From NCBI GenBank assembly GCA_001769385.1, contig MEPB01000048.1:21548-85547 (forward strand): a stretch of DNA of 64,000 nucleotides, in the 5' to 3' direction. The notes under the pieces were generated by a model that did no database searches, was not told the DNA's origin, and saw nothing but the letters and a program-made list of their open reading frames with translations. Made by a program: the position numbers and the translations under genes. This document shows positions 5,637 through 51,880 of the stretch, in pieces. Position 1 is the first letter of the stretch; every line of letters starts with the position of its first letter. The stretch comes from Bacteroidetes bacterium RIFCSPLOWO2_12_FULL_35_15 (GTDB lineage Bacteria > Bacteroidota > Bacteroidia > 2-12-FULL-35-15).

Positions 5637-7529
5637 TTAATGAGCTCCTTTTTTTATTTCTTCCACAATTGAAGGGTCCAGCAAAGTAGAGGTATCGCCC
5701 AGATTTGATAAATCGCCTTCAGCTATTTTGCGCAGGATACGTCTCATGATTTTTCCGCTTCGTGTTTTTGGGAGGCCTTGTACTACTTGAATTTTATCAG
5801 GTTTTGCAATTGCTCCCATGTTTTTTGTTACGGTTTCAATTATTTCTTTTTTTAAGGCATCAGCATCTTTTCGTTCATGTTCACAAATGACAAACGCATA
5901 AATGCCCCAGCCTTTTATTTCATGAGGGAATCCAACCACTGCAGATTCAACAATATCAGGATGCTGATCAATTGCATTTTCTATTTCTGAGGTTCCTAAT
6001 AAATGTCCTGAAACTTTTATTACATCGTCAACCCGACCTGATATATGGTAATATCCCTCTTCATCGCGTTTGCATGCATCACCTGTGAAATAATATCCTT
6101 TAAATGTTTCAAAATAAGTTTCTTTGCAACGTTTATGATTTTGATAAGTTGTACGAATGATACCCGGCCATGGAAATTTAAAACACAATCTTCCTTCCAC
6201 ATTATTTCCCTGTAATTCTTTTCCCTGTTCATCAAGCAAAATAGGTTGTACTCCCGGTAAAGGAAGTGTTGCAAAACCAGGTTTTGTTTTAGTGATTCCG
6301 GCTAATGGAGAGATCATGATTCCACCGGTTTCTGTTTGCCACCATGTATCCACGATCGGACATTTCTTTTTTCCAATATTTTCGTTATACCAGTTCCATG
6401 CAAATTCATTTATTGGTTCGCCAACAGTTCCCAAAACCTTTAGCGAATCTAATTTATAAGGCTTTACAAAATCCAGACCAAGCGCTTCAAGGGATCTTAT
6501 TGCAGTTGGAGCGGTATAAAAAATAGCTACCTGATGTTTATCAATAACTTGCCAGAATCTTCCAGCATCAGGATAAGTGGGGATTCCTTCAAACATTAAT
6601 GTGGTGCCTCCTGCCAGAAGTGGTCCGTAAACTAAATAGGAGTGACCGGTGATCCAGCCCACATCAGCCGTACACCAAAATATATCGCCATCATTGTATT
6701 GAAAAACATTACGGAATGTATAATCAACAAAAGTCATATAGCCCGCTATTGTATGCACAACTCCTTTTGGTTTTCCGGTGGAGCCGGAAGTGTATAATAT
6801 GAAAAGCATATCTTCTGCATCCATTATTTCGGCAGGACAATCAGCGGAACTGTTTTTAATTTCATCCTGCCACCAAACATCACGTCCGCTTTCCATCTTT
6901 ACTTCGGTATTTATATGTTTATATACAATCACTTTTTTAACCGAAGGACAAGTTAATAAGGCTTCATCAATAACATTTTTCAATGGAATTTCTTTTGCTC
7001 CACGATACGCACCATCTGAAGTAATGACCACGTTACAATCGGCATCATGAATTCTATCAGAAAGTGATTTAAAAGAAAAACCACCAAATACCACTGAGTG
7101 AATAGCTCCGATTCTCGCACATGCCAAAACCGCTATTGTTAATTCAGGAATCATGGGCATATAAATACAAATGCGGTCGCCTTTTTTTGCACCATTTTTT
7201 TTCAGCACATTTGCAAATCGACATACTTCTGAATGAAGTTCTTTATACGTGAATTTTCGTACTTCATCTTCTGGATTATTAGGTTCCCAAATGAGTGCAG
7301 TTTGATTTCCTCTTTTTTCAAGATGGCGATCAAGGCAGTTTTCGGTGATATTGAGTTGTCCGCCAATGAACCATTTTATACTTGGCTCATCAAAATTCCA
7401 CTCCAACACGTTATCCCATTTTTTATGCCAGGTAAATTGTTCAGCTTGCTCTGCCCAAAAGGCTTCAGGAGTTTCAACACTACGTTTGTATTCCTGCTGA
7501 TATTGCTCAAAAGATGTAATACGGTTCAT
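5637..7529 (-). CDS. acs: Acetyl-CoA synthetase (acetate--CoA ligase)
   Basis: Full-length 630 aa product. Motifs YTSGSTGKPKGV, WWQTETGG and a C-terminal PKTRSGKIMRR are canonical Acs. Confidence 0.95.
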   Translation of the reverse strand: MNRITSFEQYQQEYKRSVETPEAFWAEQAEQFTWHKKWDNVLEWNFDEPSIKWFIGGQLNITENCLDRHLEKRGNQTALIWEPNNPEDEVRKFTYKELHSEVCRFANVLKKNGAKKGDRICIYMPMIPELTIAVLACARIGAIHSVVFGGFSFKSLSDRIHDADCNVVITSDGAYRGAKEIPLKNVIDEALLTCPSVKKVIVYKHINTEVKMESGRDVWWQDEIKNSSADCPAEIMDAEDMLFILYTSGSTGKPKGVVHTIAGYMTFVDYTFRNVFQYNDGDIFWCTADVGWITGHSYLVYGPLLAGGTTLMFEGIPTYPDAGRFWQVIDKHQVAIFYTAPTAIRSLEALGLDFVKPYKLDSLKVLGTVGEPINEFAWNWYNENIGKKKCPIVDTWWQTETGGIMISPLAGITKTKPGFATLPLPGVQPILLDEQGKELQGNNVEGRLCFKFPWPGIIRTTYQNHKRCKETYFETFKGYYFTGDACKRDEEGYYHISGRVDDVIKVSGHLLGTSEIENAIDQHPDIVESAVVGFPHEIKGWGIYAFVICEHERKDADALKKEIIETVTKNMGAIAKPDKIQVVQGLPKTRSGKIMRRILRKIAEGDLSNLGDTSTLLDPSIVEEIKKGAH

Positions 7530-7649
7530 AAAATTGAAAGATTAAATTATGTAGGTTGATAAAGATATGAATTCAAAAATAAGAAAAGAAAATGGCTTTA
7601 AAAATTAGCAGTGATCACAATCAAGAAAACAAATGATTTGAAAATGGGA

Positions 7650-8540
7650 GTTGTAGTATGGTACGCAGATTTAGCGGATTGTTTAAGATTTAAAATGATT
7701 TTTTGTAGGTGATTGTATAAGGATATTCTGTGTTGAAGCACTTTGTAGTATGGTACGCAGATTTAGGGGAGAGTTTAAGATTTAAAAATGATTTTTGTTG
7801 CTGATTATTATAGGATATTCCGTGTTGAAGTACTTTGTGGTATGGTACGCAGATTTAGCGGATTGTTTAAGATTTAAAAATGATTTTTGTTGCTGATTGT
7901 TCTAGGATATTCCGTGTTGAAGTACTTTGTAGTGTGGAACGCAGATTTAGGGGAGAGTTTAAGATTTAAAATGATTTTTTGTAGGTGATTGTATAAGGAT
8001 ATTCTGTGTTGAAGTACTTTGTAGTATGGTACGCAGATTTAGCGGAGAGTTTAAGATTTAAAAATGATTTTTGTTGCTGATTATTATAGGATATTCCGTG
8101 TTGTACTTTGTGGTATGGTACGCAGATTTCGCGGATAGTTTAGGATTTTAAAATGATTTTTGTTGATGATTGTTATATGATTTCTGTATTGAAGATTGTT
8201 ATAAGATATTCCGTGTTGAAATACTTTGTAGTATGGTACGCAGATTTCGCGGATAGTTTAAGATTTAAAAATGATTTCTGTATTGAAGATTGTTATAAGA
8301 TATTCCGTGTTGAAATACTTTGTAGTATGGTACGGAGATTTCGCGGATAGTTTAAGATTTAAAAATGATTTTTGTTGCTGATTGTTATATGATATTATGT
8401 GTTGAAGATTGTTATAGGATATACGTTATTGAAATTCGCATTTTGAATGATCTTAATTTATTATAAAGTCCTAACTAACATTTAAATCTTATCATTTTTT
8501 TATCATAAAAATCTTAATAAATCTGCGTCCGATCGAATCA
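7650..8540. repeat. Tandem array of ~8 direct repeats (unit ~92 bp, one 118-bp variant) with a terminal inverted partial copy
   Basis: Copies of the unit containing tatggtacgcagattt start near 7657, 7749, 7841, 7934, 8025, 8114, 8232 and 8326. An inverted partial copy aaaaatcttaataaatctgcgtcc lies at ~8505-8530. The 65-aa ORF at 8153-8350 is repeat-derived. Confidence 0.85.
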
Positions 8541-8554
8541 AGAATTTTTAAAAT

Positions 8555-9355
8555 CTATTTCGATAATTCACTTGCTCTGTCTCTGGCTTTAACAATGCCT
8601 TTCTGAAGATTTTCTCCAACATGATCTGATTCGAAAGAACTGAGTGCCGTTTCAGTAGTTCCTCCTTTTGAAGCAACTGCTTTTATCAATTCATCCAGTG
8701 ATTTATTGGTGGTATTCATCAAGTGAAATGAGCCCAACATGGTTTGTTTAACAAGCATGGAAGAAGTAGCTTCATCAAATCCCATTTGTTTTCCTGCTTC
8801 GATCATTTGTTTTACAATGTAGAAAAAATAGGCTGGTCCGCTGCCACTCAATGCTGTAACAGCATCTAACAGATCCTCATTCTCAAAAAACACGGTACGT
8901 CCGGTTGTTGCCAATAAATTTTCGGCCTTACGAATTTGTTCCAGCGAAAGGGATTTGCTTGCTGTAAAGGCAGTAACTCCCATGCCTAATTCTGCAGGAG
9001 AATTTGGCATAGCACGTATGATGTTTGGATTATTTAGTGCACTTTCAATACGTTGAATTTTTACTCCTGCCATTATGGAAATAATACATTTGGCGGGTTC
9101 TAAAATATGTTTCAGTTCTTTTGCTAATTCTTCAAAATCCTGTGGCTTTACTGCAATAATTACAATATCACTTGCTGCGATTTTTGCATCATTTATCACA
9201 GTTACCTCAGCAACATTCAGTTTAATCAGTTCCTGTTTGCGTGTTTCATTTTTTTCGGCAAGTATTAAATTTTCTTTTGAAACAATATTGTATTTTAAAA
9301 AAGCGCGGGCGTATATTAAACCCATGTTGCCACATCCAACAATTGTAATTTTCAT
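8555..9355 (-). CDS. proC: Pyrroline-5-carboxylate reductase
   Basis: N-terminal Rossmann motif IVGCGNMG, a ~266 aa product and a conserved ProC C-terminal dimerisation region. Confidence 0.9.
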   Translation of the reverse strand: MKITIVGCGNMGLIYARAFLKYNIVSKENLILAEKNETRKQELIKLNVAEVTVINDAKIAASDIVIIAVKPQDFEELAKELKHILEPAKCIISIMAGVKIQRIESALNNPNIIRAMPNSPAELGMGVTAFTASKSLSLEQIRKAENLLATTGRTVFFENEDLLDAVTALSGSGPAYFFYIVKQMIEAGKQMGFDEATSSMLVKQTMLGSFHLMNTTNKSLDELIKAVASKGGTTETALSSFESDHVGENLQKGIVKARDRASELSK

Positions 9356-9417
9356 TTTGTTTTATTTTTTAATGAGTTTTCTCTTTCTGCAAAATAGATT
9401 TATTTTTAATAGATTTT

Positions 9418-9897
9418 TTAATGCGCCCTCTTTTCTTTTATTTCTATTTGTCTTTTAATGCTTTCTTCTAAAGAAATAAATGTTTCTGTACGCTGCACCC
9501 CTTTTATTGTTTGGATATGTTCATTTAACACTTCTCTCAAATGCTGGGTATCCCGACAAATTATTTTTGCAAACATACTATAAACTCCGGTTGTATAATG
9601 CAATTCGACAACTTCCGGGATCTTTTTCAATCGACTGACGGCATCATGGTATTCAGATCCTTTATCTAAAAATATTCCTAAAAATGCACAAACATCATAA
9701 CCAACTTTTGCCGGATTAATTTCTAAGTGAGAGCCCCGTACAACTCCGGTGTCAATTAATTTTTTCATTCGAACATGGACTGTTCCTGCTGATACAACTA
9801 ATTCTTTTGCAATTTCTGTGTAAGGAATTGTGGAGTCCTTCATCAGCATAGAAAGAATTTGTCTGTCTAATTTATCAAGTTGAAAATTTTGCGCCAT
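9418..9897 (-). CDS. asnC: Lrp/AsnC family transcriptional regulator
   Basis: N-terminal HTH (LDRQILSMLMKDSTIPYTEIAKEL) plus a RAM domain. It is divergent from the asnA-like gene. Confidence 0.8.
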   Translation of the reverse strand: MAQNFQLDKLDRQILSMLMKDSTIPYTEIAKELVVSAGTVHVRMKKLIDTGVVRGSHLEINPAKVGYDVCAFLGIFLDKGSEYHDAVSRLKKIPEVVELHYTTGVYSMFAKIICRDTQHLREVLNEHIQTIKGVQRTETFISLEESIKRQIEIKEKRAH

Positions 9898-10042
9898 TTA
9901 AGGATGTGTATTTTACGACAAATGTAAAAAAAATATTGTTATATTATTATATTACTAATAATATGTTCAATTTGTTGAATATTTAATAATGTAAGGTTAT
10001 ACCATTTATCTTTGCCAAAGAAATTAAATAGAAAAAATAAAA

Positions 10043-10996
10043 ATGGAAACAACAATTTTAGAAAAAACGACCATGTTATCAGAAACATTAAAAAAAATCA
10101 AACGCCCTGAATTAAAGGATATCCTTAAAATTCAACAAGGCATTATCAGAGCAACGCATGAATTCATGCATAAAAAAGATGTAGTACAGCTTATGCCTAT
10201 AATGTTATCTGCAATTACCGACCCTTTGAATCATAGTGTTGTTGACGCTTCAATTAACTATGCAGACCAAAAATGGAGCTTAACAAAATCAATGATCTTT
10301 CATAAGCAATTAGCTTTAATAAACCCTTCGCTTGATGCCATTTATATTGTTTCTCCAAATGTTAGGTTAGAGTCGAAAGACCGTGCCGGTACCGGAAGAC
10401 ATTTATTTGAATTTACCCAGGTAGATTTTGAATTTAAACGAAAAGATAAAGAATTTGTAATGGCTTTTATGGAAGAACTGATTGCTTTTGTTTTTGATTC
10501 TTTGAACAAGCAGCTTCCGGAAATCATTATTAAATTAAGAGGAGAGTTGCTTCCTGTTTTTAAGAAATTAATAACATACAGAACGGAGGAATTGGAAGCA
10601 GAATTGGGTGAAGATTATGAATTTAAAAAATCAAAAGAAAGTCTGGAACCTTTTTGGTTAGTAAATCATAAACGCGAATTTTACGACAAAGAAGATATGT
10701 CGAAACCAGGAACATTTTTAAACTATGATATTATTTGGCCGGAAGGTTATGGCGAAGGTTTATCCGGTGCAGAACGTGAATATGAATATACACAAATTTT
10801 AAAACGGATGGAAGAAACCGGAACTAATAAAGAAGTGTTTAAAGATTATTTATCTGTTGCAAAACAAGAGGGGTTTATTCCAACAGCCGGTGCAGGGTTT
10901 GGCGTAGAACGGATGACACGTTATATTTGCCAATTAAAAGATGTTGACGAAGTCACTGTGTTTTCAAGAAAACCATATAGTGAATTGATGTTTTAA
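10043..10996 (+). CDS. asnA: Aspartate--ammonia ligase (asparagine synthetase A, AsnRS-catalytic-domain-like)
   Basis: Class II aaRS-like motifs (HLFEFTQVDFE, GAGFGVERMTRYI) are present without an anticodon-binding domain. The product is ~317 aa. It is divergently paired with an AsnC regulator, as at the E. coli asnC-asnA locus. Confidence 0.5.
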   Translation: METTILEKTTMLSETLKKIKRPELKDILKIQQGIIRATHEFMHKKDVVQLMPIMLSAITDPLNHSVVDASINYADQKWSLTKSMIFHKQLALINPSLDAIYIVSPNVRLESKDRAGTGRHLFEFTQVDFEFKRKDKEFVMAFMEELIAFVFDSLNKQLPEIIIKLRGELLPVFKKLITYRTEELEAELGEDYEFKKSKESLEPFWLVNHKREFYDKEDMSKPGTFLNYDIIWPEGYGEGLSGAEREYEYTQILKRMEETGTNKEVFKDYLSVAKQEGFIPTAGAGFGVERMTRYICQLKDVDEVTVFSRKPYSELMF

Positions 10997-11059
10997 TATT
11001 TGTATGACCTGAAGTAAAAAGGAGTAGCGGAAGTGCAGTATCCCGCTTCTAATGTTGGC

Positions 11060-11095
11060 TATGTTGAAGGAGCGGCTTTCTCCGCTCCTTTTTTT
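11060..11095 (+). terminator. Rho-independent terminator downstream of asnA-like gene
   Basis: Stem ggagcggctttctccgctcc followed by a T-run. Confidence 0.5.
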
Positions 11096-11188
11096 GATAA
11101 AACAAGGTTGTAATGTTTTGATTATAAGGAAGCACTTTGTGATGCTATAAAAAAAAGAGTTATTAACTGAAAAGAAAGTTGCAATTAA

Positions 11189-11548
11189 TTATTGCTTTTT
11201 ATAATGATCCCTTATCACCACCTTTTGCAATTCGCGTTTGATGATCAGATCGGTAACAATTACCGAAAATGATTCTGAGGAATTTTCATTTACTGCTTTT
11301 TTAATTTGAACATCGCTCACATCAATACGATAAAGAATTCCCATAAATTTTTGTTGGTTGTTCTCTATTAAATTTTTTATGTGGGGTTCTATCTGTTCAA
11401 ACAATTCCTGGTATGCATTATAGGCGTTACCGGAAAATTTTATTTCCATCCCGAACATATCAAAATCCTTGATGATTTGATTGGCTGTGTCTTTTATCAG
11501 GTCAAGACGATTGAAATATTTTGTTAGATCGGTAAAGTTCATTTGCAA
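11189..11548 (-). CDS. Hypothetical protein (119 aa)
   Basis: Intact ORF whose start codon lies 1 bp downstream of the upstream gene's stop (11548/11550). No recognised motif. Confidence 0.4.
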   Translation of the reverse strand: MQMNFTDLTKYFNRLDLIKDTANQIIKDFDMFGMEIKFSGNAYNAYQELFEQIEPHIKNLIENNQQKFMGILYRIDVSDVQIKKAVNENSSESFSVIVTDLIIKRELQKVVIRDHYKKQ

Positions 11549-11549
11549 T

Positions 11550-12839
11550 TTATTTCAAATCGTATTTCTTTTTATACTTTTCGTAAAGCTTTTTTTGATC
11601 ATTGTTCAGATCAATACTAATTCCTTTTATAAAAGCAAGTTCCACATTATTTGTCCGCATATCCAACACATCACCGGTTGAAATAAAAAGTGTTGCATCT
11701 TTTCCTGCTTCTATACTTCCGGTTGAGTTATCTATCCCTAAAATTTTTGCAGTACTCAATGTAATTGCTTTTAAGGCTTGTTCTTTTGTTAGTCCGTATG
11801 CCGCAGCTGTACCGGCCATAAATGGCAAGTTGCGTGTTTCCATAGCTTCCATGTCTCCTGAGTTATCTAAACAAAAAAGTACTCCTGCTTGTTGTAATAA
11901 GTACGGAAGTTTATAAGGCAGATTAACATCATCTTCCGGATGTTCAGGCAAACTATGAACTCGTGCAACAATTACCGAAATATAATTCTCACGCAACAGA
12001 TCAGTTACCATCCAACTATCTTTGCCGCCAACAACAGTAGTTTTTTTAATTCCATTTTGTTTCGAAAAATTTACTGCCTCAATTATTTCTTTTGCATTAT
12101 CGGTATGTATAAATAATGTTTGTGTTCCATTGAAAAGACCTTTCATTGCTTCGAATCGAAGGTTTTTTTCTTCGACTACTTCTGTTTCATTATACGCTTT
12201 TGCATCGAAAAAAAGTTTTTTCAGATCAGCGGTTTGTTTAGTGTAATTTTTATTTTTTTCATACGGTCCAGGGTAAATATTGTCTTCGTCCAGATACTTA
12301 CGGATCTGCATTTTTGGCCAATTCAGATGTATGCCATCGTCAATTTTATAAGCGGCATCTTCCCAGTTCCAGCCATCTAACTTAACAATACTTGAAGTGC
12401 CGGAGATTATTCCTCCTCGAGGTGTTATCTGAGCTAATAAAACACCATTGGTTCTTACTGTTGAAATAATCTTTGAATCTGTATTGTATGCGATCAATGA
12501 ACGAACATTTGGTAAGGTGGAGCCAACTTCTTTAAAATCACTAGTTGCACGTATCGATTCCATTTCAATTAAACCTAAAGTAGAATTGGGAGAAATAATT
12601 CCCGGATAAATGTGCTTGCCTGTTGCATCTATTTTTTCATCATAGTTGCCGAGTTCGACTTTCGTTTTTGAAGCATCAATTACTTCGGTTATTTTACCGT
12701 TTTTTATTCCAATGTAGGAATTTTGAATAACACTGTCGGTTCCTAAATGAGCTATTCCATTCATGAGCAAAATGCTTTTTGTTTGAGCACTAGCGGTGAT
12801 GGTGATAAATGTGGTTAGGAGTAAAAAAAATTTTCTCAT
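11550..12839 (-). CDS. Amidohydrolase family protein (metal-dependent hydrolase), secreted
   Basis: Signal peptide and an amidohydrolase fold signature (IDATGKHIYPGIISPNSTLGL). 429 aa. Confidence 0.7.
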   Translation of the reverse strand: MRKFFLLLTTFITITASAQTKSILLMNGIAHLGTDSVIQNSYIGIKNGKITEVIDASKTKVELGNYDEKIDATGKHIYPGIISPNSTLGLIEMESIRATSDFKEVGSTLPNVRSLIAYNTDSKIISTVRTNGVLLAQITPRGGIISGTSSIVKLDGWNWEDAAYKIDDGIHLNWPKMQIRKYLDEDNIYPGPYEKNKNYTKQTADLKKLFFDAKAYNETEVVEEKNLRFEAMKGLFNGTQTLFIHTDNAKEIIEAVNFSKQNGIKKTTVVGGKDSWMVTDLLRENYISVIVARVHSLPEHPEDDVNLPYKLPYLLQQAGVLFCLDNSGDMEAMETRNLPFMAGTAAAYGLTKEQALKAITLSTAKILGIDNSTGSIEAGKDATLFISTGDVLDMRTNNVELAFIKGISIDLNNDQKKLYEKYKKKYDLK

Positions 12840-12859
12840 GGTTTGGTTTATATATACTG

Positions 12860-13310
12860 GATATTATGGTACGCAGATCTTTTAGGATTTTTAAGATTAA
12901 AAATGATTTTGTTTTATTCTATAATTATGATTTTAGGTTTTGACTGTTTTATATACTTGGTATTATGGTACGCAGATCTATATGAATTTTTATGATTTAA
13001 AATGATTTGGTTTTATGTTATAATTATGATTTTAGGTGTTGGCTGTTTTATTTAGTTGGTATTATGGTACGCAGATCTATATGAATTTTTATGATTTAAA
13101 ATGATTTGGTTTTATGTTATAATTATGATTTTAGGTGTTGACTGTTTTATATACTTGGTGTTATGGTATGCAGATCTTTTAAGATCTTTAAGATTAAAAA
13201 TGATTTTGTTTTATGCTATAATTATGATTATGATTTTATGTATTGACTGTTTTATATACTTGGTATTATGGTACGCAGATTTATTAAGATTTTTAAGATC
13301 AAAAAAGATT
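12860..13310. repeat. Tandem array of 5 direct repeats (~99 bp unit) of the tatggtacgcagat family
   Basis: Unit starts are near 12863, 12961, 13060, 13159 and 13264. The 82-aa ORF at 13101-13349 is a repeat artefact. Confidence 0.85.
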
Positions 13311-13311
13311 T

Positions 13312-13731
13312 TTATGTTGTTGAGGTTAAGATTATTTTATGTTTCTTGAATTCGTTGGAAAGAACCTTTCTTTTGTATTGTGGCTCTGTTCCAAAATTAA
13401 GAAGTAAGCCAACTTCCATCTCTGTTGCCCTTAAATAGTTGACTAACTGGATTTCATGTTCAATGATAATTTCTTCAACAGCCTTTAATTCAATCACTAT
13501 AAGATTTTCTACAACAATATCTGCAAAATAGGAACCCACAACTTCCCCTTCATAATAAACAGTTATTGGTTTTTGTTTTTCGCATTTTAGTTTCAACTTT
13601 TTTAACTCGATAGTTAATGCATTTTCATAAACTTTTTCATAGAATCCATAACCAATCGTGTTATAAACATTAAAAAATGCTTTTAATATTAGTCCTGTAA
13701 TTCCAGAATGTTTAAAGTTGTCATCCATCAT
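13312..13731 (-). CDS. GxxExxY family protein (PD-(D/E)XK nuclease-like)
   Basis: 139 aa. Contains G-F-Y-E-K-V-Y-E-N-A (GxxExxY) and the acidic/lysine residues IVVENLIVIELKA. It is flanked by the repeat array and its inverted copy. Confidence 0.7.
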   Translation of the reverse strand: MMDDNFKHSGITGLILKAFFNVYNTIGYGFYEKVYENALTIELKKLKLKCEKQKPITVYYEGEVVGSYFADIVVENLIVIELKAVEEIIIEHEIQLVNYLRATEMEVGLLLNFGTEPQYKRKVLSNEFKKHKIILTSTT

Positions 13732-13759
13732 AAAAAAAGCATAATCATTTTAAATCATA

Positions 13760-13790
13760 AAAATTCATATAGATCTGCGTACCAATAATT
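13760..13790. repeat. Inverted partial copy of the array repeat core
   Basis: atagatctgcgtacc is the reverse complement of ggtacgcagatctat. Confidence 0.6.
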
Positions 13791-16700
13791 TAATTCTCTC
13801 TCAAATATTCTTTTTCAATACTTTCGCATTCATACAATTTCTGTTTTTTTACGACAGGTTTTTGTGTTGCTGCTCCGGTCTTTTTTTCATCCAGCATTTT
13901 TTGAATGATACGTGCCCTCTCTTTCTGAATCTCTTGTCGCAATTTCAGATCTTCTTCCGTATCATAATAAATATGCCCATCAATAATTGTCTTTTCAACT
14001 TTTGCATAGATCGACAATGGATTATCGGACCATAAAACCACATCCGCATCTTTACCCACTTTAATACTTCCTACTTTTTTATCGATGTGTAACAATTTTG
14101 CCGGATTGAGTGTAACCATTTTCAAAGCATCTTCTTCGCTCATTCCACCATATTTCACTGATTTTGCAGCTTCCTGATTTAATCTGCGACCCATTTCAGC
14201 ATCATCTGAATTGATTGCTGTTGTAATTCCCATTTGTGTTAAAAGTGCTGCATTGTATGGAATGGCATCTTGCACTTCCATTTTATAAGCCCACCAATCA
14301 CTGAAAGAAGAAGCGCCTGCACCATGCGATTTCATTTTATCTGCTACTTTATATCCTTCTAAAATATGTGTGAACGTATTTACTTTAAATCCCATTGAAT
14401 CGGCAACATGCATCAGCATATTTAATTCAGATTGAACATAGGAATGACAAGTAATAAAACGTTTTTGGTTTAAAATTTCTGCCAATGCTTCTAGTTCCAG
14501 ATTCCTGCGAAATGGAGTTGTTGTAGCTTTTACTTTTTCTGATAAAGCTTCAAAGGATTTTTGTTTTGCATCGTATTCTTTCGCTCTGGTAAAATAATCG
14601 TAATACACTTGCTCCACACCCATACGCGTTTGCGGAAAACGCAGGGTGCTGAAATCACCGGCATTACTTTGTTTCACATTTTCACCCAATGCAAATTTGA
14701 TGAAGCCATCTGCTTTGGCAAATTTCATTTCTTCGGGTGATTTTCCCCAGCGTAATTTTATAAGAGCTGATTGTCCGCCAATCGGATTTGATGATCCGTG
14801 AAGTAATTGAGAAGTGGTAACTCCACCGGAAAGTTGTCTGTAGATATTAATATCCTCCGGATTAATTACATCACCTATTCGAACTTCTGAACTGGATGCT
14901 TGTGTGCTTTCATTAACACCGTTTGCAATTGCAATGTGTGAATGTTCATCAATAATTCCTGCAGTAAGATGTTTTCCTGTTCCATCAATTACCTTTGCAA
15001 AAGCAAGTTTGGGTGCACCAATATCATCCGCAATACGAACAATGCGTCCTTCAGTAATATATACATCCTGATTTTTTAAAACACCTTCTGATTCATTTGT
15101 CCAAACAGTAACATGTTTAATTAAGATGGCATCATAACGCGTTTTTAGATCATAAATAATTTTATTGAATCCATCACGGTCGTTAAGTGGTTTACCATAA
15201 GCACAAAACGGATAAATGACTTGTCCGTATTTCAGAACATCTTTTTTTACAGAATCTTTTTTCACAGATTCTTTTTTTATTTCTGTTATTAATTTAAATG
15301 TTGCACTCCAGTCGAGCCATTCGCCATCCGGAGTTTGCCCTTTCCCATTCATTGTTAATGATTCCGTATTAATAGTTCCGCTCAAACGAATGGTGCCTTT
15401 CATATCTTTAGGGTTAAAATTCAGGGAAACCGAATTGCCGAATACTATAACATTTACAGGTGTTTTAGCAGTGTCAATTAAAATATAGCCTTTTAGTTTG
15501 TCTGGTTCTCCTTCAATTTTTAATTGGTACAATCGTTTATTTCCATAAGCAAAATCATAATTGCCTCTTACATCAATAGTGCTGTAATCATTTATTTTAT
15601 AAGGATTTCCCTGAATCCAGTTTTCATAAATGATCGTTTTCTCATCAAATAAATTACCGGAAGTGATGATGAAATTTGCGATCATTCCGCTTTTTAATTT
15701 GCCTAGTTTATCTGAGATGTTTAATAATTCAGCAGGTGTGGAGGTGAGTGATCTCAATGCTTGTTTTTCTGATAAACCATAACTGATCGCTTTGCGTAAA
15801 TTTTTCCAGAAATCTTTTTTATCTTTCAGGTCAGCGGTTGTTAGTGCAAACGGAATAAAATATTTTTCCATCGCAACAGGATTTGCAGGAGCCATTTCCC
15901 AATGTTTTAATTCTGTTAATGAAACATTGATTGCATCGTAAGGGTCTTCAACATCGTATGCAATGGGGAAATTAAGAGGGATAATGAATTTACAATTCGT
16001 TGCTTTTATATCATCTAAACTTTGATATTCGGTTCCGCTTCCTTTGATGATGTAATTAATTTTAAATTCTTTTCCGATCTTATCGGCACGTAACACATTG
16101 AATTTGTCGGTTGTTTCGAAAATCTGCGGAAGCATTTGTAAATTATTAAATGCTTCAAGTGAAATATTAACCTCTCCCCCTGTCTCTCTCCTGGAGGCGA
16201 GAGGAGTTTGGTTTTTATACCAATCGGCATCCAGATAGGTCTGGCGAATTAATGCTATAGTACCCATTAAGGAGGAGGGATAATCTTGTGTGGAACATCC
16301 TTTGTCAAATGAAAATAGTGCTGCTGCTTTGTCGCTTAGGATCAATAAATTTTCTTTCCCATCGGCCAAAGAAACGATTGTGCCTGAACCTCTTACTATT
16401 CCATCTTTCTGAAAAGTTAAAACAGCACCAAATCCTAATTTCCGAAACTCATCTGCCGACAGGTTATTACCGGCAAAAATTTTAAATGCTTCTGTTTCTG
16501 CTTTCACAGCTTGATTCCATCCATAGGCACCTTTTGTATTGCTACCCATTTGTGGCAGCATCCCTTTGTAAATAGTTTTATTTTCGGGCATACCATAATT
16601 GGTATATGCATCGATCAGTGCCGGATAAATTGACTTTCCTTTCAAGTCAAATATTACAGAACCTTTTGGTATTGAAACTTTTGTTCCAACTTGTATAATG

Positions 16701-38331: not shown

Positions 38332-39672
38332 ATGTTCAAAAAGATATTAATAGCAAACAGAGGCGAAATAGCATTACGTATTATTCGTACCTGTAAGGAA
38401 ATGGGAATAAAAACGGTAGCTGTCTATTCTACTGCCGATAAAGATTCATTGCATGTAAAATTTGCCGATGAGGCAGTGTGCATTGGTCCTCCGCCAAGTA
38501 AAGATTCCTACTTAAATATACAAAGTATTATTTCAGCTGCTGAAATTACCAATGCTGATGCGATTCATCCGGGTTATGGTTTTTTATCAGAGAATGCAAA
38601 GTTTTCAAAAATTTGTCAGGAGCATAATATAAAATTTATTGGGGCTACACCCGAAATGATCAATTCCATGGGCGACAAAGCTTCTGCAAAAGCAACCATG
38701 ATCGAAGCCGGTGTTCCTTGTGTTCCGGGTTCAGAAGGTTTATTGGAAAGTGCAGCGCAAGCAATAGAATTAGCCCCGAAGGTTGGTTATCCTGTGATCA
38801 TCAAAGCTACTGCAGGTGGCGGTGGTAGAGGAATGCGTATTGTCTGGAAAGAAGAAGAAATGGAAGCCCTGTATGATTCCGCATTTAAAGAAGCAGAAGC
38901 TGCATTTGGAAATGGCGCCATGTATATGGAAAAATATATTGAAGAACCACGCCATATCGAAATTCAAATTGTTGGTGATCAATATGGAAAAGCGTGTCAT
39001 TTATCAGAAAGAGATTGTTCCATTCAAAGACGTCATCAAAAATTGGTAGAGGAAACTCCATCCCCTTTTATGACCACTGAATTGCGTGATGCAATGGGTG
39101 CTGCTGCTGTTAAAGCTGCAACAGCCGTTAGGTACGAAGGCGTTGGAACTGTTGAGTTTTTGGTTGATAAGCACCGCAATTTTTATTTTATGGAAATGAA
39201 TACACGTATTCAGGTGGAGCATCCGATAACTGAAGAGGTAATCAACTATGATTTGGTACGTGAACAAATATTGGTTGCAGCAGGTGTTCCTATTTCCGGA
39301 AAAAATTATTTTCCTCAATTATGTGCAATTGAATGTCGGATCAATGCTGAAGATCCATTTAATAATTTCCGTCCTTCACCGGGTAAAATTACTACGTTAC
39401 ATACACCGGGCGGACATGGCATTCGTGTAGATTCTCATATTTATGCAGGTTATACGATTCCTCCGAATTATGACAGCATGGTTGCAAAACTTATAACCGT
39501 TGCTCAGACACGTGAGGAAGCCATTGCAAAAATGCACCGTGCTTTAAGTGAGTACGTTATTGAAGGTGTAAAAACAACCATCCCTTTTCATTTAAAATTA
39601 ATGAAAGACGAAAATTTTATTAAAGGAAATTATACAACAAAGTTTTTGGAAGATTTTGATCTTACTGAATAA
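38332..39672 (+). CDS. accC: Acetyl-CoA carboxylase biotin carboxylase subunit
   Basis: ATP-grasp ([23 protein letters not shown]). 446 aa. Confidence 0.95.
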
Positions 39673-39728: not shown

Positions 39729-39874
39729 CACTAACTTTTTCAATTAGAAATTCCAATTAGAAATTCCAATTTGAAGGAGCTATTTCATCAGCTGTCTTTG
39801 CTAAAAACCTGAGTTCGATAACTTGATATAAATATCATTAAATATTAATAGACGGAGGATATTATTTCGGAACT

Positions 39875-40105
39875 GTCATTTCGAACGAAATGAAATGAAG
39901 AGAGAAATATCATTTTGCGAAGAAGAGATTTCTCCCTCTGGTCGAAATGACATTTAGGAAAGTCATTTCGAACGAAATGAAGAGAGAAATCTCATTTTGC
40001 GAAGAAGAGATTTCTCCCTCTGGTCGAAATGACTTTAGGAAAGTCATTTCGAACGAAATGAAATGAAGAGAGAAATCTCATTTTTGCAAAGAAGAGATTT
40101 CTCCC
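39875..40105. repeat. Tandem cluster (~3 units, ~75 bp each) of the REP/MITE-like hairpin family
   Basis: The unit gtcatttcgaacgaaatgaa(atgaa)gagagaaatctcattttgcgaagaagagatttctccctctggtcgaaatgac is repeated. The 72-aa ORF 40063-40281 is repeat-derived. Confidence 0.8.
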
Positions 40106-40162
40106 GGAGTTTCTTCCCGCATTATTTCCAAAAAGGAAAAATAGTTTTTAAATTTGATGGAT

Positions 40163-41761
40163 TTATTTCACAGGCATCAATGACAATTTTCCGTAAGATT
40201 GTTTATTACCCGCCTTTACAATATAAATATATGATCCATTTGCTATTTTCCTTCCGGCATCATCTCTTCCATCCCAAATGATTTCATGTGTTCCGGACAT
40301 TTCCTGATTGCTTTGAAGCGTTTTTAATTTAGTTCCGAGAATAGAATAAATTTCAATAGTGACTTTCGAAGTTTCGCTAATGAAATAGCCGATATTCACC
40401 TTGTTTTCGAAAGGATTAGGATACGCATACGTTCTCAGGTCAGATGAAACCCGACTAATGTGTTCGTTGATCCCATTCACAACGTATTCTTGTGACAACA
40501 TTGAATCGATGTTGTATAGTTCATCCCCCGGTTCATAAATTAACCATTGGAACGAATCGAACAGCATTTCATTTGTGGTGCTGGTTCCTGCAATAACAGT
40601 AACAGGCGGACTGCTTGGGTTATTTGGGTTTGAAGTTGTATTGTCAAATATATGCCTGGAATATAGCTTATAGCCATTCGGAACTTTTACCAGCTGCTTA
40701 AATGTATAATATCCTTGCCAATCGAAATTCCAGTTATTTATTCGAATCAATGGAATAGTATCAGTAGCCGCATAGGCATAGTTTACCATAAATGTAGCCA
40801 GTTTATGCGAATGAGGAAATGCTGAGAACATCGAAATACTATAAGGTAGTGTTCCTGATGCAGGATATTGTGCTGTAAACGTTTTAACAGTGTTTGCCGG
40901 AATATATAATGACCAGTTTTGTAAAGGAGTAGTCACATATACCGGACGAACACCTGTTGTTCCCGGAGGATAAAAATAGATCCTGATTTTTGTGCTGTCC
41001 TGAACTCCCGCAGTTCCTGCAGGATAATGAATCTGAAGTACAATTTTCGAACCTGATTTTATAGAAATCCCCATTTTTAAAGGTCCGGAGCTTGGAAAAA
41101 CGGTTGGAGAAGCCCCTGGAGCATAACCACCAATACTAAAATCTCCGGAAATGTTGTAACAAGCCCCCGTTAGATCGCTTGTCGTTGTCCCAAGTGTATC
41201 TATGTTTGCAATAACGTGATGCACAATCGTTGCATTTCCTGCAACTATTTCATAAGCCCGGATAATGCGATTTTGAGTGAGCCCGGTCGGAATAGAAAAA
41301 CAGACATAACTATCATTCGTAGAAGCATTGCTTGTAAATGTTGGTATTTTTAGCTCAAGGTCAGGTGCCCCATATAATTGGTACTGAGGATAAACAGGCG
41401 GAGCCGGTGCAAGTGTTGTATCACCGGCAGGTGTTCCATTAGCGATCCAGTTCAGGATAGCATTTTTTTCAGGAGTAGAAATAAGATGTTCATGTGAAAA
41501 ACGTGAATAAGTTGTGTCAGGTGACCAGGGAGGCATATAATTGGAATTTAAATATGCAGTGATCGTTGATGCATGTGAAATCACCTGAGAGTAGGTAATG
41601 AAAGATGGCGCGTGTTGATTTTCATGATGACAACCATCACATCTGTTGATAAATATTGGTGCAACATCACTGTAAACCAGTTGAGCAAATGTAGGTCCTG
41701 AAAAGAAGGAAATAAAGATAACAAGGGATAGCTTTTTCATAAGAATGTAGTTTTTTGTCAT
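40163..41761 (-). CDS. Secreted protein with N-terminal c-type cytochrome-like heme motif and T9SS type-A C-terminal sorting domain
   Basis: Signal peptide. APIFINRCDGCHHENQHAP is a CxxCH motif. The C-terminus YAYPNPFENKVNIGYF...GSYIYIVKAG is a CTD. Confidence 0.55.
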   Translation of the reverse strand: MTKNYILMKKLSLVIFISFFSGPTFAQLVYSDVAPIFINRCDGCHHENQHAPSFITYSQVISHASTITAYLNSNYMPPWSPDTTYSRFSHEHLISTPEKNAILNWIANGTPAGDTTLAPAPPVYPQYQLYGAPDLELKIPTFTSNASTNDSYVCFSIPTGLTQNRIIRAYEIVAGNATIVHHVIANIDTLGTTTSDLTGACYNISGDFSIGGYAPGASPTVFPSSGPLKMGISIKSGSKIVLQIHYPAGTAGVQDSTKIRIYFYPPGTTGVRPVYVTTPLQNWSLYIPANTVKTFTAQYPASGTLPYSISMFSAFPHSHKLATFMVNYAYAATDTIPLIRINNWNFDWQGYYTFKQLVKVPNGYKLYSRHIFDNTTSNPNNPSSPPVTVIAGTSTTNEMLFDSFQWLIYEPGDELYNIDSMLSQEYVVNGINEHISRVSSDLRTYAYPNPFENKVNIGYFISETSKVTIEIYSILGTKLKTLQSNQEMSGTHEIIWDGRDDAGRKIANGSYIYIVKAGNKQSYGKLSLMPVK

Positions 41762-42455: not shown

Positions 42456-45400
42456 ATGAAAAAAATAATACTAATTAACTGTCTTATATTCTTAAGTATT
42501 ATAAAAGCATTTGCACAACCCGCTAATGACGGTTGTGCCGGAGCTCAATCTGTTACACCTGATGGAACCTGTGTTGCAGGGACTACTGTAGATGCTACTG
42601 ATGGCTGGACGGGAAGTGTCGGTTGTCAATCCGGAGCTAGTCATCCGGAGGTTTGGTACTCTTTTGTTTCCACTGGAACGCAAGCAAGTTTCACAATTAC
42701 AAATGGTACAATGACTGGAAATATTGAGTTGGTTTTAGTTGAATCCTCTGGTCCTTGTGCCGGGCTGGCTTTAACAGGATCCTCTTGCGGAGCTTCTCCT
42801 TTAAGTGCTTCGTTTAATGGTTTGGTGATCGGTACAACCTATTATTATACCATTTCTTCTTCTACTTCTTCGCTTGGAACTTTTACAACTTGTGTAACCA
42901 CATCCAATCCTCCTCCGGTCTCCGGACAAGATTGTGGAAATGCTGCAATATTATGTAATAACAATCCTTTTTCACAGGGTACCTCAAGTGCTGGTGCAGG
43001 AGCTGTTTTTGGAAATGCTTCTAATGAAAATTTATCTGCATTGGGTTGTTTGGCATCTGATGAGCGTCAATCAAAATGGTATAAATTTACCATAGGTTGT
43101 ACAGGTACCATAGAGTTTTTAGTGGATCCTAATGATAATGCAAATGACTATGATTGGGCTGTTTATGATATTACTACTTCCGGTTGTGCATTAACTCCAG
43201 GTGGCGCAGCTGCAGGAGGAGCAACCCAGGTAGCTTGTAATTACAGTGGTTGTCCTGGAAATACAGGGATTCTGAATCCTTTAACGGATCCATGTACGAT
43301 AACTAATTATACAACATGCGAAGCGGCCGGAGGGCCCGGTAATTGCAGTGGTGCTGATATTGGTCAGTTTAGTATTGCACCTCCGACTCTTACTGCTGGC
43401 CATACGTATGCATTAATTATTGATAACTTTTCTCTTTCAAATGCAGGATTCGCATTCTCTTGGTTAAGTGGTGGAACAGCAACTATTGGACCTGATGCAA
43501 ATTATACGTATGCAAATCCATCCTGTGGCGTGTTTAATTTTACTAAATCGTGTGCTACAATTAATTCAACTTTTCTTTGGACCTTTGGTGATGGAGGAAC
43601 TTCAACTTTACAAAATCCTTCACATACTTATGTAACCGGTGGAACTTACATAATTTCTTTACAAGTTACGGACGCTCTTGGTTGTATTAATACAAGCAGC
43701 CAAACAGTTGCTTTTTTAACACCGCTAGCAACAGCTACTCCGGCATCACAAAGTATTTGTTCGGGTACATCTACTTCTATTGCATTAAGTAGTACTGTAA
43801 TCGGAACAACTTATGCCTGGACTGTTAGCGAAACTGGTGTTTCAGGAGCCAGTGCCGGAAGCGGTTCTTCTATTGCCCAGACATTGACTTTAACAGGAGC
43901 TGTTGCCGGAACTGCAACATATACGATTACTCCTACAGCTGCCGGTTGTGTTGGTGCAACAATCACGGTTACAATTACTGTCAACCCTAGTGCTACCATC
44001 GTACTTTCTTCTGCTGTTGGTACAAATGCGCAAACAGTTTGTGCATTAGCAGCAATTGCAAATATTACTTATACTGTTGGCGGAGCTGGAACTGGTGCAG
44101 GTGTTACCGGTTTGCCTGCTGGCGTTACCGGAGCATTTGCAGGAACGACATTCACTATCAGCGGTACACCAACAGCAACCGGAACTTTTAACTATGTTGT
44201 TACAACTACCGGAACCTGTACTCAGGCAACAGCAACCGGAACTATTATCGTGAATCCCAATGCGACAATTACACTAACTTCAGCTGCAGCTACAACAGCT
44301 CAGACGCTTTGTGTAAGTACAGCAATTACAAATATTACATACACAGTTGGTGGAGGTGGAACAGGTGCAGGGGTAACAGGTTTACCGGCTGGCGTAACAG
44401 GTTCTTTTGCAGGCGGTGTTTTCACAATCAGCGGCACTCCTACTGCAACAGGCACGTTTAATTACACGGTAACAACAACAGGAAGTTGCACGCAGGCAAC
44501 AGCACTCGGAACAATAACGGTAAACCCGAATGCCAGCATAACTTTAACATCCGCAGTAGGTTCTAATGCACAAACTATTTGCTTAACATCACCTGTCACA
44601 ACTATTACCTATACAGTTGGTGGTGGTGGAACCGGAGCTGGTGTAACAGGTTTGCCGGCAGGTGTATCAGGTTCTTTTGCAGGAAGTACATTTACGATCA
44701 GCGGAACTCCAACTGCAACAGGTACATTTAACTATGTAGTAACAACTACCGGAACCTGTACACAGGTTACCGCATTAGGGACTATCATTGTTAATCCGAA
44801 TGCGACAATTACCTTAACGTCTGCAATAGCTACTACAGCACAGACTCTTTGTGTAAGTACAGCAATTACAAATATTACATATACCATTGGTGGAGGTGGA
44901 ACAGGTGCAGGGGTAACAGGTTTGCCGGCCGGGGTAACAGGTTCTTATGCAGGTGGAATTTTCACAATCAGCGGCACTCCTACCGCAACAGGCACTTTTA
45001 ATTATACAGTAACAACAACGGGAACCTGTACCCAGGCAACAGCGCTGGGAACAATAACGGTAACCCCGAATGCAACCATAACTTTAACATCCGCAGTAGG
45101 TACCAATGCACAAACTATTTGCTTAACATCACCTGTCACAACGATTACCTATACGGTTGGTGGTGGTGGAACCGGTGCAGGTGTGACAGGTTTACCTGCA
45201 GGTGTAACGGGTTCTTTTGCCGGAAGTACATTCACGATCAGCGGAACACCAACAGCAACAGGTACATTTAACTATGTAGTTACAACTACCGGAACCTGTA
45301 CGCAGGTTACCGCATTAGGGACTATCATTGTTAATCCGAATGCGACAATTACCTTAACGTCTGCAATAGCTACTACAGCGCAGACTCTTTGTGTAAGTAC

Positions 45401-50305: not shown

Positions 50306-51373
50306 ATGAAAACAAAAAACGAAATGGCTGTCCTGACAATTAAAAAGGCATTTTTTATTGCTGTATTAGTAGGATTAGTTAATTATGTTCCTGCAATAGC
50401 ACAGGATATTCACTTTTCGCAATTTGATGAAACCCCATTGCAATTGAATCCTGCAAATGCAGCTGTGCGGCACGAAATATCTGTAATTGCCAATTATAAA
50501 AATCAGTGGCAAAGTGTTGGGGCGCCTTATAAAACATTTGCATTTTCAGGAGAAGTTAAATTATTAAAAAAGAAAAAACAAAACCTTGGATTAGGAATTG
50601 ATTTTTTTAATGATAAAGCCGGTGATTCACAAATGGGAACTACTCAGGCAAATTTATCTCTTTCAGGAATTATTCCGCTTAATTCTAAAAGTCTTATTTC
50701 CGGTGGATTAATGTGTGGCTTTGCACAACGTACCATGACAAGCGGAAAACTTAGTTGGGGAAAACAATATAACGGAATGGACTATGATGCAAGTTTGCCA
50801 ACCGGTGAAATAAGTTCTGTTAGTAATTATACCTTTCTTGATCTTGGTGCCGGAGTACAATATAGCTATGGTACACATGAAATGTATATCTCTGCCAATG
50901 ATGCAAGAAAGATAAATATTGGAGTGTCTGTTTTTCACCCGCATCAACCGGCCTATTCCTATTATGGAGATAAGTCGCAAAGATTGCACATGAAACTAAT
51001 ATTTCATGGTGATGCAGCATTGGGAATAAAAAACACAAACCTGATATTAAAACCTTCTTATATTATTTTCATACAAGGAGCAACAAAAGAAATAACACCC
51101 GGTATGACCTTCCAGTATGTTTTACAGGAGTCCTCAAAATATACGGGCATCAAAAAAGCTTCTGCTGTTTCTCTTGGTGCTTATTATCGAACACAAGATG
51201 CATTTATAGCAATAGTAAAGTATGAATATTCAAATTATGCAGTCGGATTTAGTTACGATATTAATCTTTCAAAATTAAAAACAGTTTCTTCTGCTCGTGG
51301 CGGATTCGAAATTTCTTTACGATTTATTGCCCCTGCTGCTTTTGGTAAAAGCACTTCAAGAGCAAGGCTATAA
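50306..51373 (+). CDS. sprF: PorP/SprF family type IX secretion system membrane protein
   Basis: N-terminus AQDIHFSQFDETPLQLNPANA is the PorP/SprF signature. ~355 aa beta-barrel. Positioned directly after the type-B CTD adhesin. Confidence 0.8.
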   Translation: MKTKNEMAVLTIKKAFFIAVLVGLVNYVPAIAQDIHFSQFDETPLQLNPANAAVRHEISVIANYKNQWQSVGAPYKTFAFSGEVKLLKKKKQNLGLGIDFFNDKAGDSQMGTTQANLSLSGIIPLNSKSLISGGLMCGFAQRTMTSGKLSWGKQYNGMDYDASLPTGEISSVSNYTFLDLGAGVQYSYGTHEMYISANDARKINIGVSVFHPHQPAYSYYGDKSQRLHMKLIFHGDAALGIKNTNLILKPSYIIFIQGATKEITPGMTFQYVLQESSKYTGIKKASAVSLGAYYRTQDAFIAIVKYEYSNYAVGFSYDINLSKLKTVSSARGGFEISLRFIAPAAFGKSTSRARL

Positions 51374-51880
51374 ATTAGTAATAGTGTGACTATTTTATTG
51401 ATTTCTTTTTGAAATGAAGTTCGGCAGGATGCCGGTTAATAAAAGCGGAGCGGGACGCTCTGCTTAACAGAGAGCATAAAAAAAGCTTCTGCTGTTTCTC
51501 TTGGTGCTTATTATCGAACACAAGATGCATTTATAGCAATAGTCAAGTATGAATATTCAAATTATGCAGTCGGATTTAGTTATGATATTAATCTTTCAAA
51601 ATTAAAAACAGTTTCTTCTGCTCGTGGCGGATTCGAAGTTTCTTTACGATTTATTGCCCCCGCTGCTTTTGGTAAAAGCACTTCAAGAGCAAGGCTATAA
51701 ATTAGTAATTGTGAACTGTTTTATTGATTTCTTTTTGAAATGAAGTTTAGCAGGATGCCGGTTAACAGAGCAAGGCTATAAATTAGTAATAGTGTGAACT
51801 GTTTTATTGATTCTTTTTGAAATGAAGTTCGGCAGGATGCCGGTTAATAAAAGCGGAGCGGGACGCTCTGCTTAACAGAG
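51152..51880 (+). repeat. Direct tandem duplication (2.3 copies) of the sprF 3' end plus downstream hairpin region
   Basis: Copy A is 51152-51476, copy B is 51477-51770 (~97% identical with a 25-bp internal deletion) and partial copy C is 51771-51880. All junctions are at ttaacagag. Confidence 0.85.

Follow-up and report, generated by a model that had tools for sequence, protein, structure and literature searches.

A tandem array between proC and acs in a Bacteroidetes genome, read as the amplified arm of a gene-less inverted-repeat element related to GxxExxY gene cassettes

Repetitive extragenic palindromes (REPs) and bacterial interspersed mosaic elements (BIMEs), together with a REP-associated tyrosine transposase (RAYT), underlie the concept of the REPIN (REP doublet forming a hairpin), and the mycobacterial interspersed repetitive units (MIRUs), which are variable-number tandem repeats (VNTRs), are direct tandem repeats of 40–100 bp that lie dispersed between co-directional genes and are polymorphic in copy number. 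REP/BIME repeats are short and intergenic, occur as inverted doublets and clusters and accompany a single nuclease gene that is flanked by inverted repeats and vertically inherited; the gene-less copies outnumber the gene and no target-site duplications are seen (PMC2817692). Pneumococcal BOX elements, of the form boxA–(boxB)n–boxC, are modular, gene-less and intergenic, with inverted ends and tandem modules (~45 bp to 100 bp) that differ in number between strains, bigger arrays varying more (PMC3049150). BrickBuilt, from Porphyromonas gingivalis (Bacteroidota), is an intergenic MITE (miniature inverted-repeat transposable element) with small inverted-repeat ends and an internal minisatellite; it occurs at multiple loci and its promoter activity has been shown experimentally (PMC4596501). 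Here we analyse a tandem array in the spacer between proC (pyrroline-5-carboxylate reductase) and acs (acetyl-CoA synthetase) of Bacteroidetes bacterium RIFCSPLOWO2_12_FULL_35_15, which lies in a window of 64,000 nucleotides (contig MEPB01000048.1, positions 21,548–85,547; coordinates below count from the first letter of the window).

With a probability of roughly 0.7, the array arose from a small inverted-repeat element without a gene, by tandem amplification of its ‘B’ arm; the family of this element also forms cassettes around genes for GxxExxY proteins. The best reading of the element is that it is REPIN- or BOX-like and non-autonomous, with an arm that was amplified by unequal recombination. 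The copies compared here are related, the copy between proC and acs carries no gene, its units turn over quickly and the amplification of arms has recurred. Neither Rfam 15 nor the searchable literature on GxxExxY, PF13366/PDDEXK_3 or the arm sequences gave us a description of the arms. In itself the array has modest interest; what deserves following up is the link, across the family, to an uncharacterised nuclease.

The array and its opposing arm

Both acs and proC are on the minus strand and are separated by 1,025 bp. From the proC side, this spacer holds a single ‘A’ arm, an interior of about 50 bp and eight units, each of which consists of a B arm and a linker, in the opposite orientation (Table 1). 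Tandem Repeats Finder (TRF) reports a period of 92 (6.0 copies, 87% matches) at 7651–8194 and a period of 94 at 8177–8406; the units measure 89–118 bp, with start-to-start spacings of 92, 92, 92, 92, 89, 118 and 94 bp. The 14-mer TATGGTACGCAGAT, with up to two mismatches, has 15 matches in the window compared with 0.31 expected from shuffles, including 8 at 7657–8339, 5 at 12865–13280 and 1 inverted at 13773–13786. The array that a preliminary description of this DNA reported, with eight head-to-tail copies at a period of about 92 bp, is thus confirmed by the periodicity and by the counts against shuffles.

Every unit begins with an outer block (tACTTTGTAGTAT), continues with the 11-mer GGTACGCAGAT and a series of GAT(T) motifs up to AAAAATGATTTTT, and ends in a linker of about 40 nt; the arm proper opens with tgtagtatGGTACGCAGAT, runs through the phased GAT(T) motifs and closes with AAAAATGATTTTT. 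The distance from one GAT to the next is 9–11 nt in 29 of 49 intervals. No open reading frame (ORF) runs through the array, the period of 92 is not a multiple of 3, and a scan for tRNAs and tmRNA found none. A likeness of GGTACGCAGAT to the XerC arm of dif was dropped as an identification: the rest of the arm does not fit, and eight direct copies would not persist under a site-specific resolvase.

Two details of the preliminary description hold with a refinement and two do not. The 26-bp insertion in one unit is real and is an internal duplication in unit 6, and the inverted copy, about 52–80 bp past the last unit, is a genuine family member but of the other arm subtype (A, ttattaagatttttatgataaaaaaatgat, rather than B, ttagcggattgtttaagatttaaaaatgat). 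When opposed, the A and B arms are 72% complementary over 43 nt. The segments between the cores had been said to alternate between two variants; they do not do so strictly, and there are three recurring variants of ~25–40 bp in the order X Y Y′ X Y and so on; units 1–3 and 4–6 form a three-unit higher-order repeat (TRF period 276, 92% matches), which accounts for the apparent alternation. Nor is the array immediately upstream of acs, as around 118 bp separate it from the acs start codon.

Contig L001 carries the complete 1,025-bp spacer unchanged, and 2 single-nucleotide polymorphisms (SNPs) set apart the version in L003 (L-numbers label the compared loci from other assemblies and records). 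The array is therefore not an artefact of one dataset.

The same arms around a GxxExxY gene

The preliminary description had pointed to the same arrangement, a direct array and an inverted copy, around a GxxExxY gene at 12.86–13.79 kb, and this also stands. The five units of the second array face the 3′ end of the gene. On the other side is one inverted arm, the inner end of which lies ~17 nt before the GxxExxY start codon and which is identical over 41 nt to units 2 and 3 of the second array. Convergent arms thus bracket the gene, and it is the downstream arm that has been amplified. The innermost unit of the second array (13262–13313) carries an A-type arm. A hidden Markov model (HMM) built from the arms matches only these two loci in the window. 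The array between proC and acs and the structure enclosing the GxxExxY gene are one repeat family, of which the proC–acs copy is the gene-less form.

The GxxExxY family (PF13366/PDDEXK_3, TIGR04256) is uncharacterised and has thousands of members. An AlphaFold2 model of the protein encoded in the window (pLDDT confidence score of 89.5) has a PD-(D/E)XK fold, and the catalytic residues D71, E81 and K83 are invariant in 47 GxxExxY homologues; on the strength of this fold and these residues, the nuclease is probably active. Foldseek searches against the PDB returned only generic PD-(D/E)XK folds (Cas4 SSO0001, a Spirosoma restriction-endonuclease-like protein and lambda-exonuclease-like proteins), the likeness to Cas4 being weak (E = 1e-3, template-modelling score of 0.42). 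There were no matches to the protein in PADLOC, PHROGs or PDB sequences.

Table 1 Features of the two repeat loci in the window
Feature	Position	Strand	Evidence or remark
acs (acetyl-CoA synthetase)	5637–7529	−	Gene downstream of the element
Bacteroidetes-type −7 box, TATTTTTG	7574–7581	−	Sole one in the proC–acs spacer; 45 nt before the acs ATG
Tandem array, eight B-type units	7647–8435	+	TRF, 14-mer scan, nhmmer
Unit starts of this array	~7647, 7739, 7831, 7923, 8015, 8104, 8222, 8316		Partial linker tail at 8408–8435
Internal 26-bp duplication, making unit 6 118 bp long	8163–8220	+	TRF period 26, 2.2 copies
Interior between array and opposing arm	8436–8486	.	No ORF; partly conserved in L039
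Single inverted A-type arm, cGGACGCAGATttattaagatttttatgataaaaaaatgat	8487–8537	−	nhmmer E = 1.2e-8; outer end 18 bp from the proC stop codon
proC (pyrroline-5-carboxylate reductase)	8555–9355	−	Gene upstream of the element
Second array, five 99-bp units (amplified downstream arm of the GxxExxY cassette)	12846–13313	+	TRF, 14-mer, nhmmer
GxxExxY gene, 139 amino acids, PD-(D/E)XK nuclease fold	13312–13731	−	PF13366 E = 1e-38; TIGR04256 E = 1e-37
Upstream arm of the GxxExxY cassette	13737–13786	−	Starts 6 nt past the stop codon of the amidohydrolase gene before it

Arms beside GxxExxY genes in other lineages

Arms with phased motifs lie beside all 15 GxxExxY loci that we inspected (the window included), as a convergent pair in 11 and in another arrangement in 4. 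The 14 loci outside the window come from Bacteroidota, Ignavibacteriota, Spirochaetota, Fusobacteriota, Gemmatimonadota and Alphaproteobacteria. The arm consensus has GGWACRCWGAT at the outer end, followed by 3–4 more GAT-type motifs about 10 bp apart.

In related metagenome-assembled genomes (MAGs), the orthologous cassette sits between the genes for amidohydrolases of ~1,030 and 429 amino acids. Its protein is 82–84% identical to that of the window in L031/L032, 72% in L033/34, 73% in L037/38 and 68% in L055–60, and each of these four groups has one upstream arm and an inverted arm downstream. Paralogues are bracketed as well: one (L035/36) lies between hgmA and a glyoxalase-family gene, and others (L045–54, and L181, which is labelled Ignavibacteriae) lie between leuS and serS. 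Arms of the same cassette are 73–93% identical, and those of different cassettes 71–72% on average.

More distant GxxExxY genes, with products 32–59% identical to the window protein, were inspected in annotated records. Where the locus is annotated, the gene is co-directional with both neighbours and occupies a tight slot: between radA and the gene for an FAD protein (Bacteroides finegoldii), between ade and a guanylyltransferase gene (Bernardetia) and between fabD and fabG (Sphingomonas). The arms consist of 2–4 copies of a lineage-specific motif at a phase of ~10 bp: tCACCACAGAGGACGCAGAGGACACGGAGG in B. finegoldii, AACACAGAGATAAGGAGAACCACAGAGA in Bernardetia, CACACGGATTCG... in Treponema, GACGCGGATGCCGCGGATCACGCGGAT and GAACCGCAGAGGACGCAGAGGGCCGCAGAGG in Gemmatirosa, CACGCGAAGGCGCGAGGACGCGAAG in Sphingomonas and ACAAATCGGGACAAATCGAACAAAT in Prevotella. 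Convergent pairs are present in B. finegoldii, Bernardetia, Treponema and Prevotella.

A broader arm HMM, run over 485 kb of fetched non-viral DNA, matched only the flanks of GxxExxY genes and gene-less elements. In 1 Mb of viral loci the window-arm HMM had no match; the viral collection yielded 120 pattern matches, 0 of which were significant with the arm HMM, and we found no GxxExxY relatives in IMG/VR. Separately, in L044 a gene for a 92-amino-acid DUF559/MTES_1575 protein (Pfam; 15436–15714) lies just upstream of an amidohydrolase gene, without arms of this family.

Gene-less copies

The gene-less form also occurs elsewhere. At the corresponding site, the 423-bp spacer of a sister lineage (L039/40, 97% identical in ProC) contains the A arm again but only two B units. 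In the metagenome Ga0156174, A and B subtypes occur without a gene at three loci: a simple convergent A/B pair (L027); a single B arm opposed, at a distance of ~650 bp, by four full A units and a fifth that is degenerate, the stretch between them having no called ORF of ≥80 amino acids (L030); and nine arms in regularly alternating orientation (L022). A further MAG (L007) has two direct units and one inverted unit. In a 24.8-kb record of B. finegoldii one and the same arm recurs, in the gene cassette, in two convergent pairs that enclose no gene and in one mini-hairpin; the first of these pairs forms near-perfect inverted repeats of roughly 29 nt. Inverted doublets are thus found in L027, L039, B. 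finegoldii (L186) and Gemmatirosa (L189).

Gene-less arms far outnumber the gene in two of these lineages. BLAST with the B. finegoldii arm located ~34 places in 14 B. finegoldii records compared with one GxxExxY gene, and in Gemmatirosa 56 arm places were found in two replicons compared with 3 GxxExxY genes. On Gemmatirosa plasmid 1 (L189, 19950–20117 and 25800–25920), the hairpin doublets are nested, an inner AACCACAGAGGACACGGAGG pair lying inside or beside an outer AACCGCAGAGGGCCGCAGAGG pair. Over 33 nt the inner arm shares 94% identity with the B. finegoldii arm, even though the two phyla are distant, and the Gemmatirosa genome has a G+C content of 72%.

A scan of the genome collection for the tandem 11-mer gave 14 matches, of which only L007 and probably L014 are related to the family; L008–L013 and L015–L020 are coding repeats or chance matches. 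At the contig end of a Spirosomataceae MAG (L014, 1–500) there are at least five tandem units of ~105 bp, each with a doubled GGTACGCAGATTAGACAGATGACGCAGATTTGGTGGATT. This array is probably the same kind of amplified arm, in the Cytophagales.

There is no remnant of a GxxExxY ORF in the element between proC and acs (local alignment score of 20, compared with 20.9 ± 2.7 for shuffles). Because it has no trace of an ORF, because the sister lineage has the gene-less form and because gene-less A/B pairs exist elsewhere, we read the element as a non-autonomous family member and not as the scar of a lost gene. In more distant relatives the element is absent, and other genes separate proC from acs. 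In L041 (5801–9020) and L044 (10801–12200), where ProC is 82–85% identical, two to four genes lie between the two. The array therefore sits at a rearrangement junction specific to its lineage, where proC and acs are neighbours.

Turnover of the units

Copy number differs between assemblies, a comparison that the preliminary description had suggested: the proC–acs spacer has 2 units in L039/40, 5 in L002 and 8 in the window, L001 and L003. The only difference between L002 and the window is one exact gap of 276 bp (three units), with 0 mismatches. The second array has 4 units in L001 and 5 elsewhere. In the orthologous cassette, the downstream arm is single in L031/32/33/37, whereas the L055–60 lineage has units of 133–136 bp, numbering 2 in L060, 3 in L055 and at least 3 in L056. 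By comparison of these sequences, the amplification of arms is recurrent and recent, and the downstream arm of the GxxExxY cassette was amplified independently in two lineages.

In L055 (2900–3300), L056 (2900–3400) and L060 (2900–3160), each unit repeats the opening of the next amidohydrolase gene (its start codon and initial codons, …ttttttcat…), and the duplication therefore extended into the start of the neighbouring gene. In view of the three-unit higher-order repeat and the exact 276-bp insertion or deletion between assemblies, the arrays would have grown by unequal recombination or slippage between units.

A likely acs promoter and a possible array transcript

The only Bacteroidetes-type −7 box in the proC–acs spacer (Table 1) is outside the array, in the 118-bp stretch between the array and acs that is conserved in the sister lineage L039, and is the likely acs promoter. 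The preliminary description had offered a regulatory repeat in the acs promoter region as one reading of the array. Within the units there is no Bacteroidetes −33/−7 pattern (TAnnTTTG) on either strand, sigma-70-like sites are fewer than in shuffles and no intrinsic terminators were found.

The minus-strand RNA of the array comprises 325 A, 190 C, 52 G and 214 U, or 3.65 C per G (GC skew of +0.55 on the plus strand). With a minimum free energy of 0 to −4 kcal/mol per unit, the gene-sense RNA is nearly free of structure. Rho loads on RNA that is rich in C, poor in G and unstructured. Read-through from proC into the array would yield ~780 nt of untranslated RNA of this kind. The array may therefore insulate acs from proC read-through, uncoupling proC from acs via Rho. 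Any effect of the array on acs is probably incidental.

Comparison with described repeat systems

The present family resembles REP/BIME–RAYT repeats in each of the respects listed in the opening paragraph, including the inverted doublets and clusters that are intergenic and numerous in a genome, as in B. finegoldii and Gemmatirosa. The differences lie in the protein and in the repeat. RAYT is a Y1 (IS200/IS605-type) transposase, whereas the arm-flanked gene here encodes a PD-(D/E)XK protein of ~130 amino acids; the genome may still have a RAYT at another place. REPs are imperfect palindromes of 20–40 bp, whereas the arms have no self-structure and are composed of heptamer-like motifs phased at 10 bp. 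Hairpins form here only between two opposed arms, and the arrays in the window are direct and head to tail rather than alternating.

The modularity, inverted ends and strain-variable tandem modules of BOX elements are likewise shared. The proC–acs locus has variable tandem modules in the manner of BOX elements and VNTRs, with the proviso that the 5-versus-8 counts there, and the 4-versus-5 counts of the second array, may reflect collapse of repeats in short-read assemblies. However, boxB is internal and distinct from the ends, whereas the module repeated here includes the terminal arm; BOX has no nuclease cassette with shared ends, and the sequences are unrelated. BrickBuilt matches in its general design, but its units are 23 nt long and have no spacer, it has no link to GxxExxY and its sequence is unrelated, compared with units of 92–136 bp that have no promoter motifs. 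MIRUs differ in containing short ORFs that are coupled to the flanking genes, and in having neither an opposing inverted arm nor a cognate gene.

As in MITEs, small size and terminal inverted repeats are combined with the absence of a transposase: the A and B arms are opposed and there is no interior ORF. The same arms do occur on a partner that bears a gene, although GxxExxY is not among the known transposases. The element is neither a clustered regularly interspaced short palindromic repeat (CRISPR) array nor a REP in the strict sense, and it is probably not a classical MITE, for which a target duplication and a known transposase would be expected.

Weighing the alternatives

Several observations weigh against the reading of the array as an amplified arm in a family that shares its ends with GxxExxY cassettes. 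Not every cassette has a convergent pair: the arms in Fusobacteria have the same orientation, Sphingomonas has the upstream arm only, and two Gemmatirosa paralogues have a doublet of arms immediately 3′ of the gene. Cassettes occupy orthologous positions at 68–84% protein identity and are therefore stably inherited, with no visible jumping; target-site duplications were not found in L027 or in four B. finegoldii copies, and no empty site was found, so that mobility of the family is inferred only from its dispersed copies. There are only two family loci in the 64-kb window, and matches to the exact core pattern are few in the metagenome collection (10 stretches). The differences of 5 versus 8 and 4 versus 5 units could be produced by short-read repeat collapse; units 2 and 3 of the second array are nearly identical, and L001 and L003 may come from the same population as the window.

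A different history would have placed a whole GxxExxY cassette between proC and acs, the gene being deleted later and the arms left behind. The A arm at 8487–8537 differs little from the innermost arm, at 13270, of the GxxExxY cassette, and a single arm facing an array is the architecture common to both loci. We nevertheless regard such a deletion in situ as improbable: no ORF similarity is left over, the sister lineage is already gene-less, a B-type arm stands beside the GxxExxY gene in 0 of the inspected cassettes, gene-less A/B pairs occur at three loci of another organism, and the distant relatives have other genes and no element at this position. Of the ‘empty footprint of the same element’ offered by the preliminary description, the shared family and the gene-less form survive and the footprint is not supported. 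We also think it unlikely that the array is a selected cis-regulatory device, in which the phased GAT motifs would bind a host protein or the C-rich RNA would act as a Rho-dependent insulator, with the number of units tuning acs or its coupling to proC. The 9–11-nt spacing of 29 of the 49 GAT intervals, the extreme GC skew with structure-free gene-sense RNA, the location just ahead of the putative acs promoter, with co-directional genes on both sides, and the tendency of arrays to arise on the downstream side (both arrays of the window and L055–60) would suit such a device; however, the family is found at unrelated loci beside unrelated genes, unit number varies between near-identical genomes in which nothing else has changed, the units have no promoter or terminator motifs and orthologous cassettes manage with a single arm.

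The regular unit and its conserved 50-nt core might suggest small structured RNAs or a riboregulator in every unit, as in the autonomous structured RNA of the preliminary description, but this is very improbable, because the units fold like shuffled sequence (z-scores of −0.2, +0.07, +1.3, +0.8, −1.3 and +1.0 for units on both strands; −1.07 for the A arm with the last unit), Rfam gave no matches at gathering thresholds for the window or at E ≤ 5 for both arrays (7400–14000), the units have no promoter boxes and the arms differ by transversions, not by compensatory substitutions. Rfam likewise had no match to the arms of B. finegoldii, Bernardetia, Treponema or Fusobacteria. Least credible is a degenerate CRISPR array or an assembly artefact, to which regular spacing and an origin in short-read metagenomes could lend colour. 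We took a CRISPR to have repeats of 23–55 bp, unique spacers of similar length and cas genes or a leader nearby; here the units are 92 bp, the segments between cores are recurring variants and not unique spacers, and none of the eight neighbouring genes scanned (among them acs, proC, AsnC, a tRNA-synt_2-like gene, amidohydrolases and an M43 peptidase) is cas-like. An artefact would not be expected to recur as an identical 8-unit array in another assembly and as a 2-SNP version in a third.

A possible role for GxxExxY proteins

For the element read as an amplified, gene-less relative of the GxxExxY cassette, the arms themselves suggest what might recognise them. The 11-mer is kept across lineages, and paired arms differ in part by transversions (CAGAT versus CTGAT), which would disrupt an RNA helix; together these favour recognition of one face of the DNA by a sequence-specific protein over an RNA stem. 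The GxxExxY protein itself is the obvious candidate. Less certainly, the arms would be the sites that the GxxExxY nuclease recognises, and the enzyme would thereby preserve or disseminate gene-less copies in a manner resembling that of RAYT with REPs and REPINs.

A wider proposal is tentative, and we consider it doubtful rather than probable. GxxExxY proteins might be the cognate nucleases of a widespread repeat family with arms of 2–4 CRCRGAK-type motifs phased at 10 bp, the gene cassette being a vertically kept ‘master’ and the gene-less doublets and arrays the population that it maintains. This would be a PD-(D/E)XK analogue of the RAYT–REPIN system, extending from Bacteroidota to Gemmatimonadota and Alphaproteobacteria.

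Considered by itself, the array is a minisatellite that evolves fast; it is usable as a strain marker and is a possible modifier of proC–acs transcriptional coupling. It led to the rule that every inspected GxxExxY gene has phased-motif arms, mostly convergent, and that there are gene-less copies too. The arms offer a concrete candidate substrate for a large protein family of uncharacterised role, and point to a second route, via a different nuclease fold, by which genomes may host populations of REP-like repeats.

Other repeats in the window

About 2.5 copies of a hairpin-rich 82-bp repeat, with the palindromes GTCATTTCGAAC... and GAGAAATCTC..., occupy 39870–40110 between convergent genes (38332–39672 on the plus strand and 40163–41761 on the minus strand). 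Its motifs recur inside or beside arm elements in L030 (7290–7560) and L023, and it seems to be a second family of REP-like repeats, sharing locations with the first. In the spacer after the ORF at 50306–51373, a different 82-bp tandem repeat is present in two copies (51686–51847, 93% matches). An ORF of 2,570 amino acids at 42456–50168, composed mostly of 270-bp and 243/486-bp coding repeats (TRF scores of 1,056–1,527), is probably a giant repetitive surface protein.

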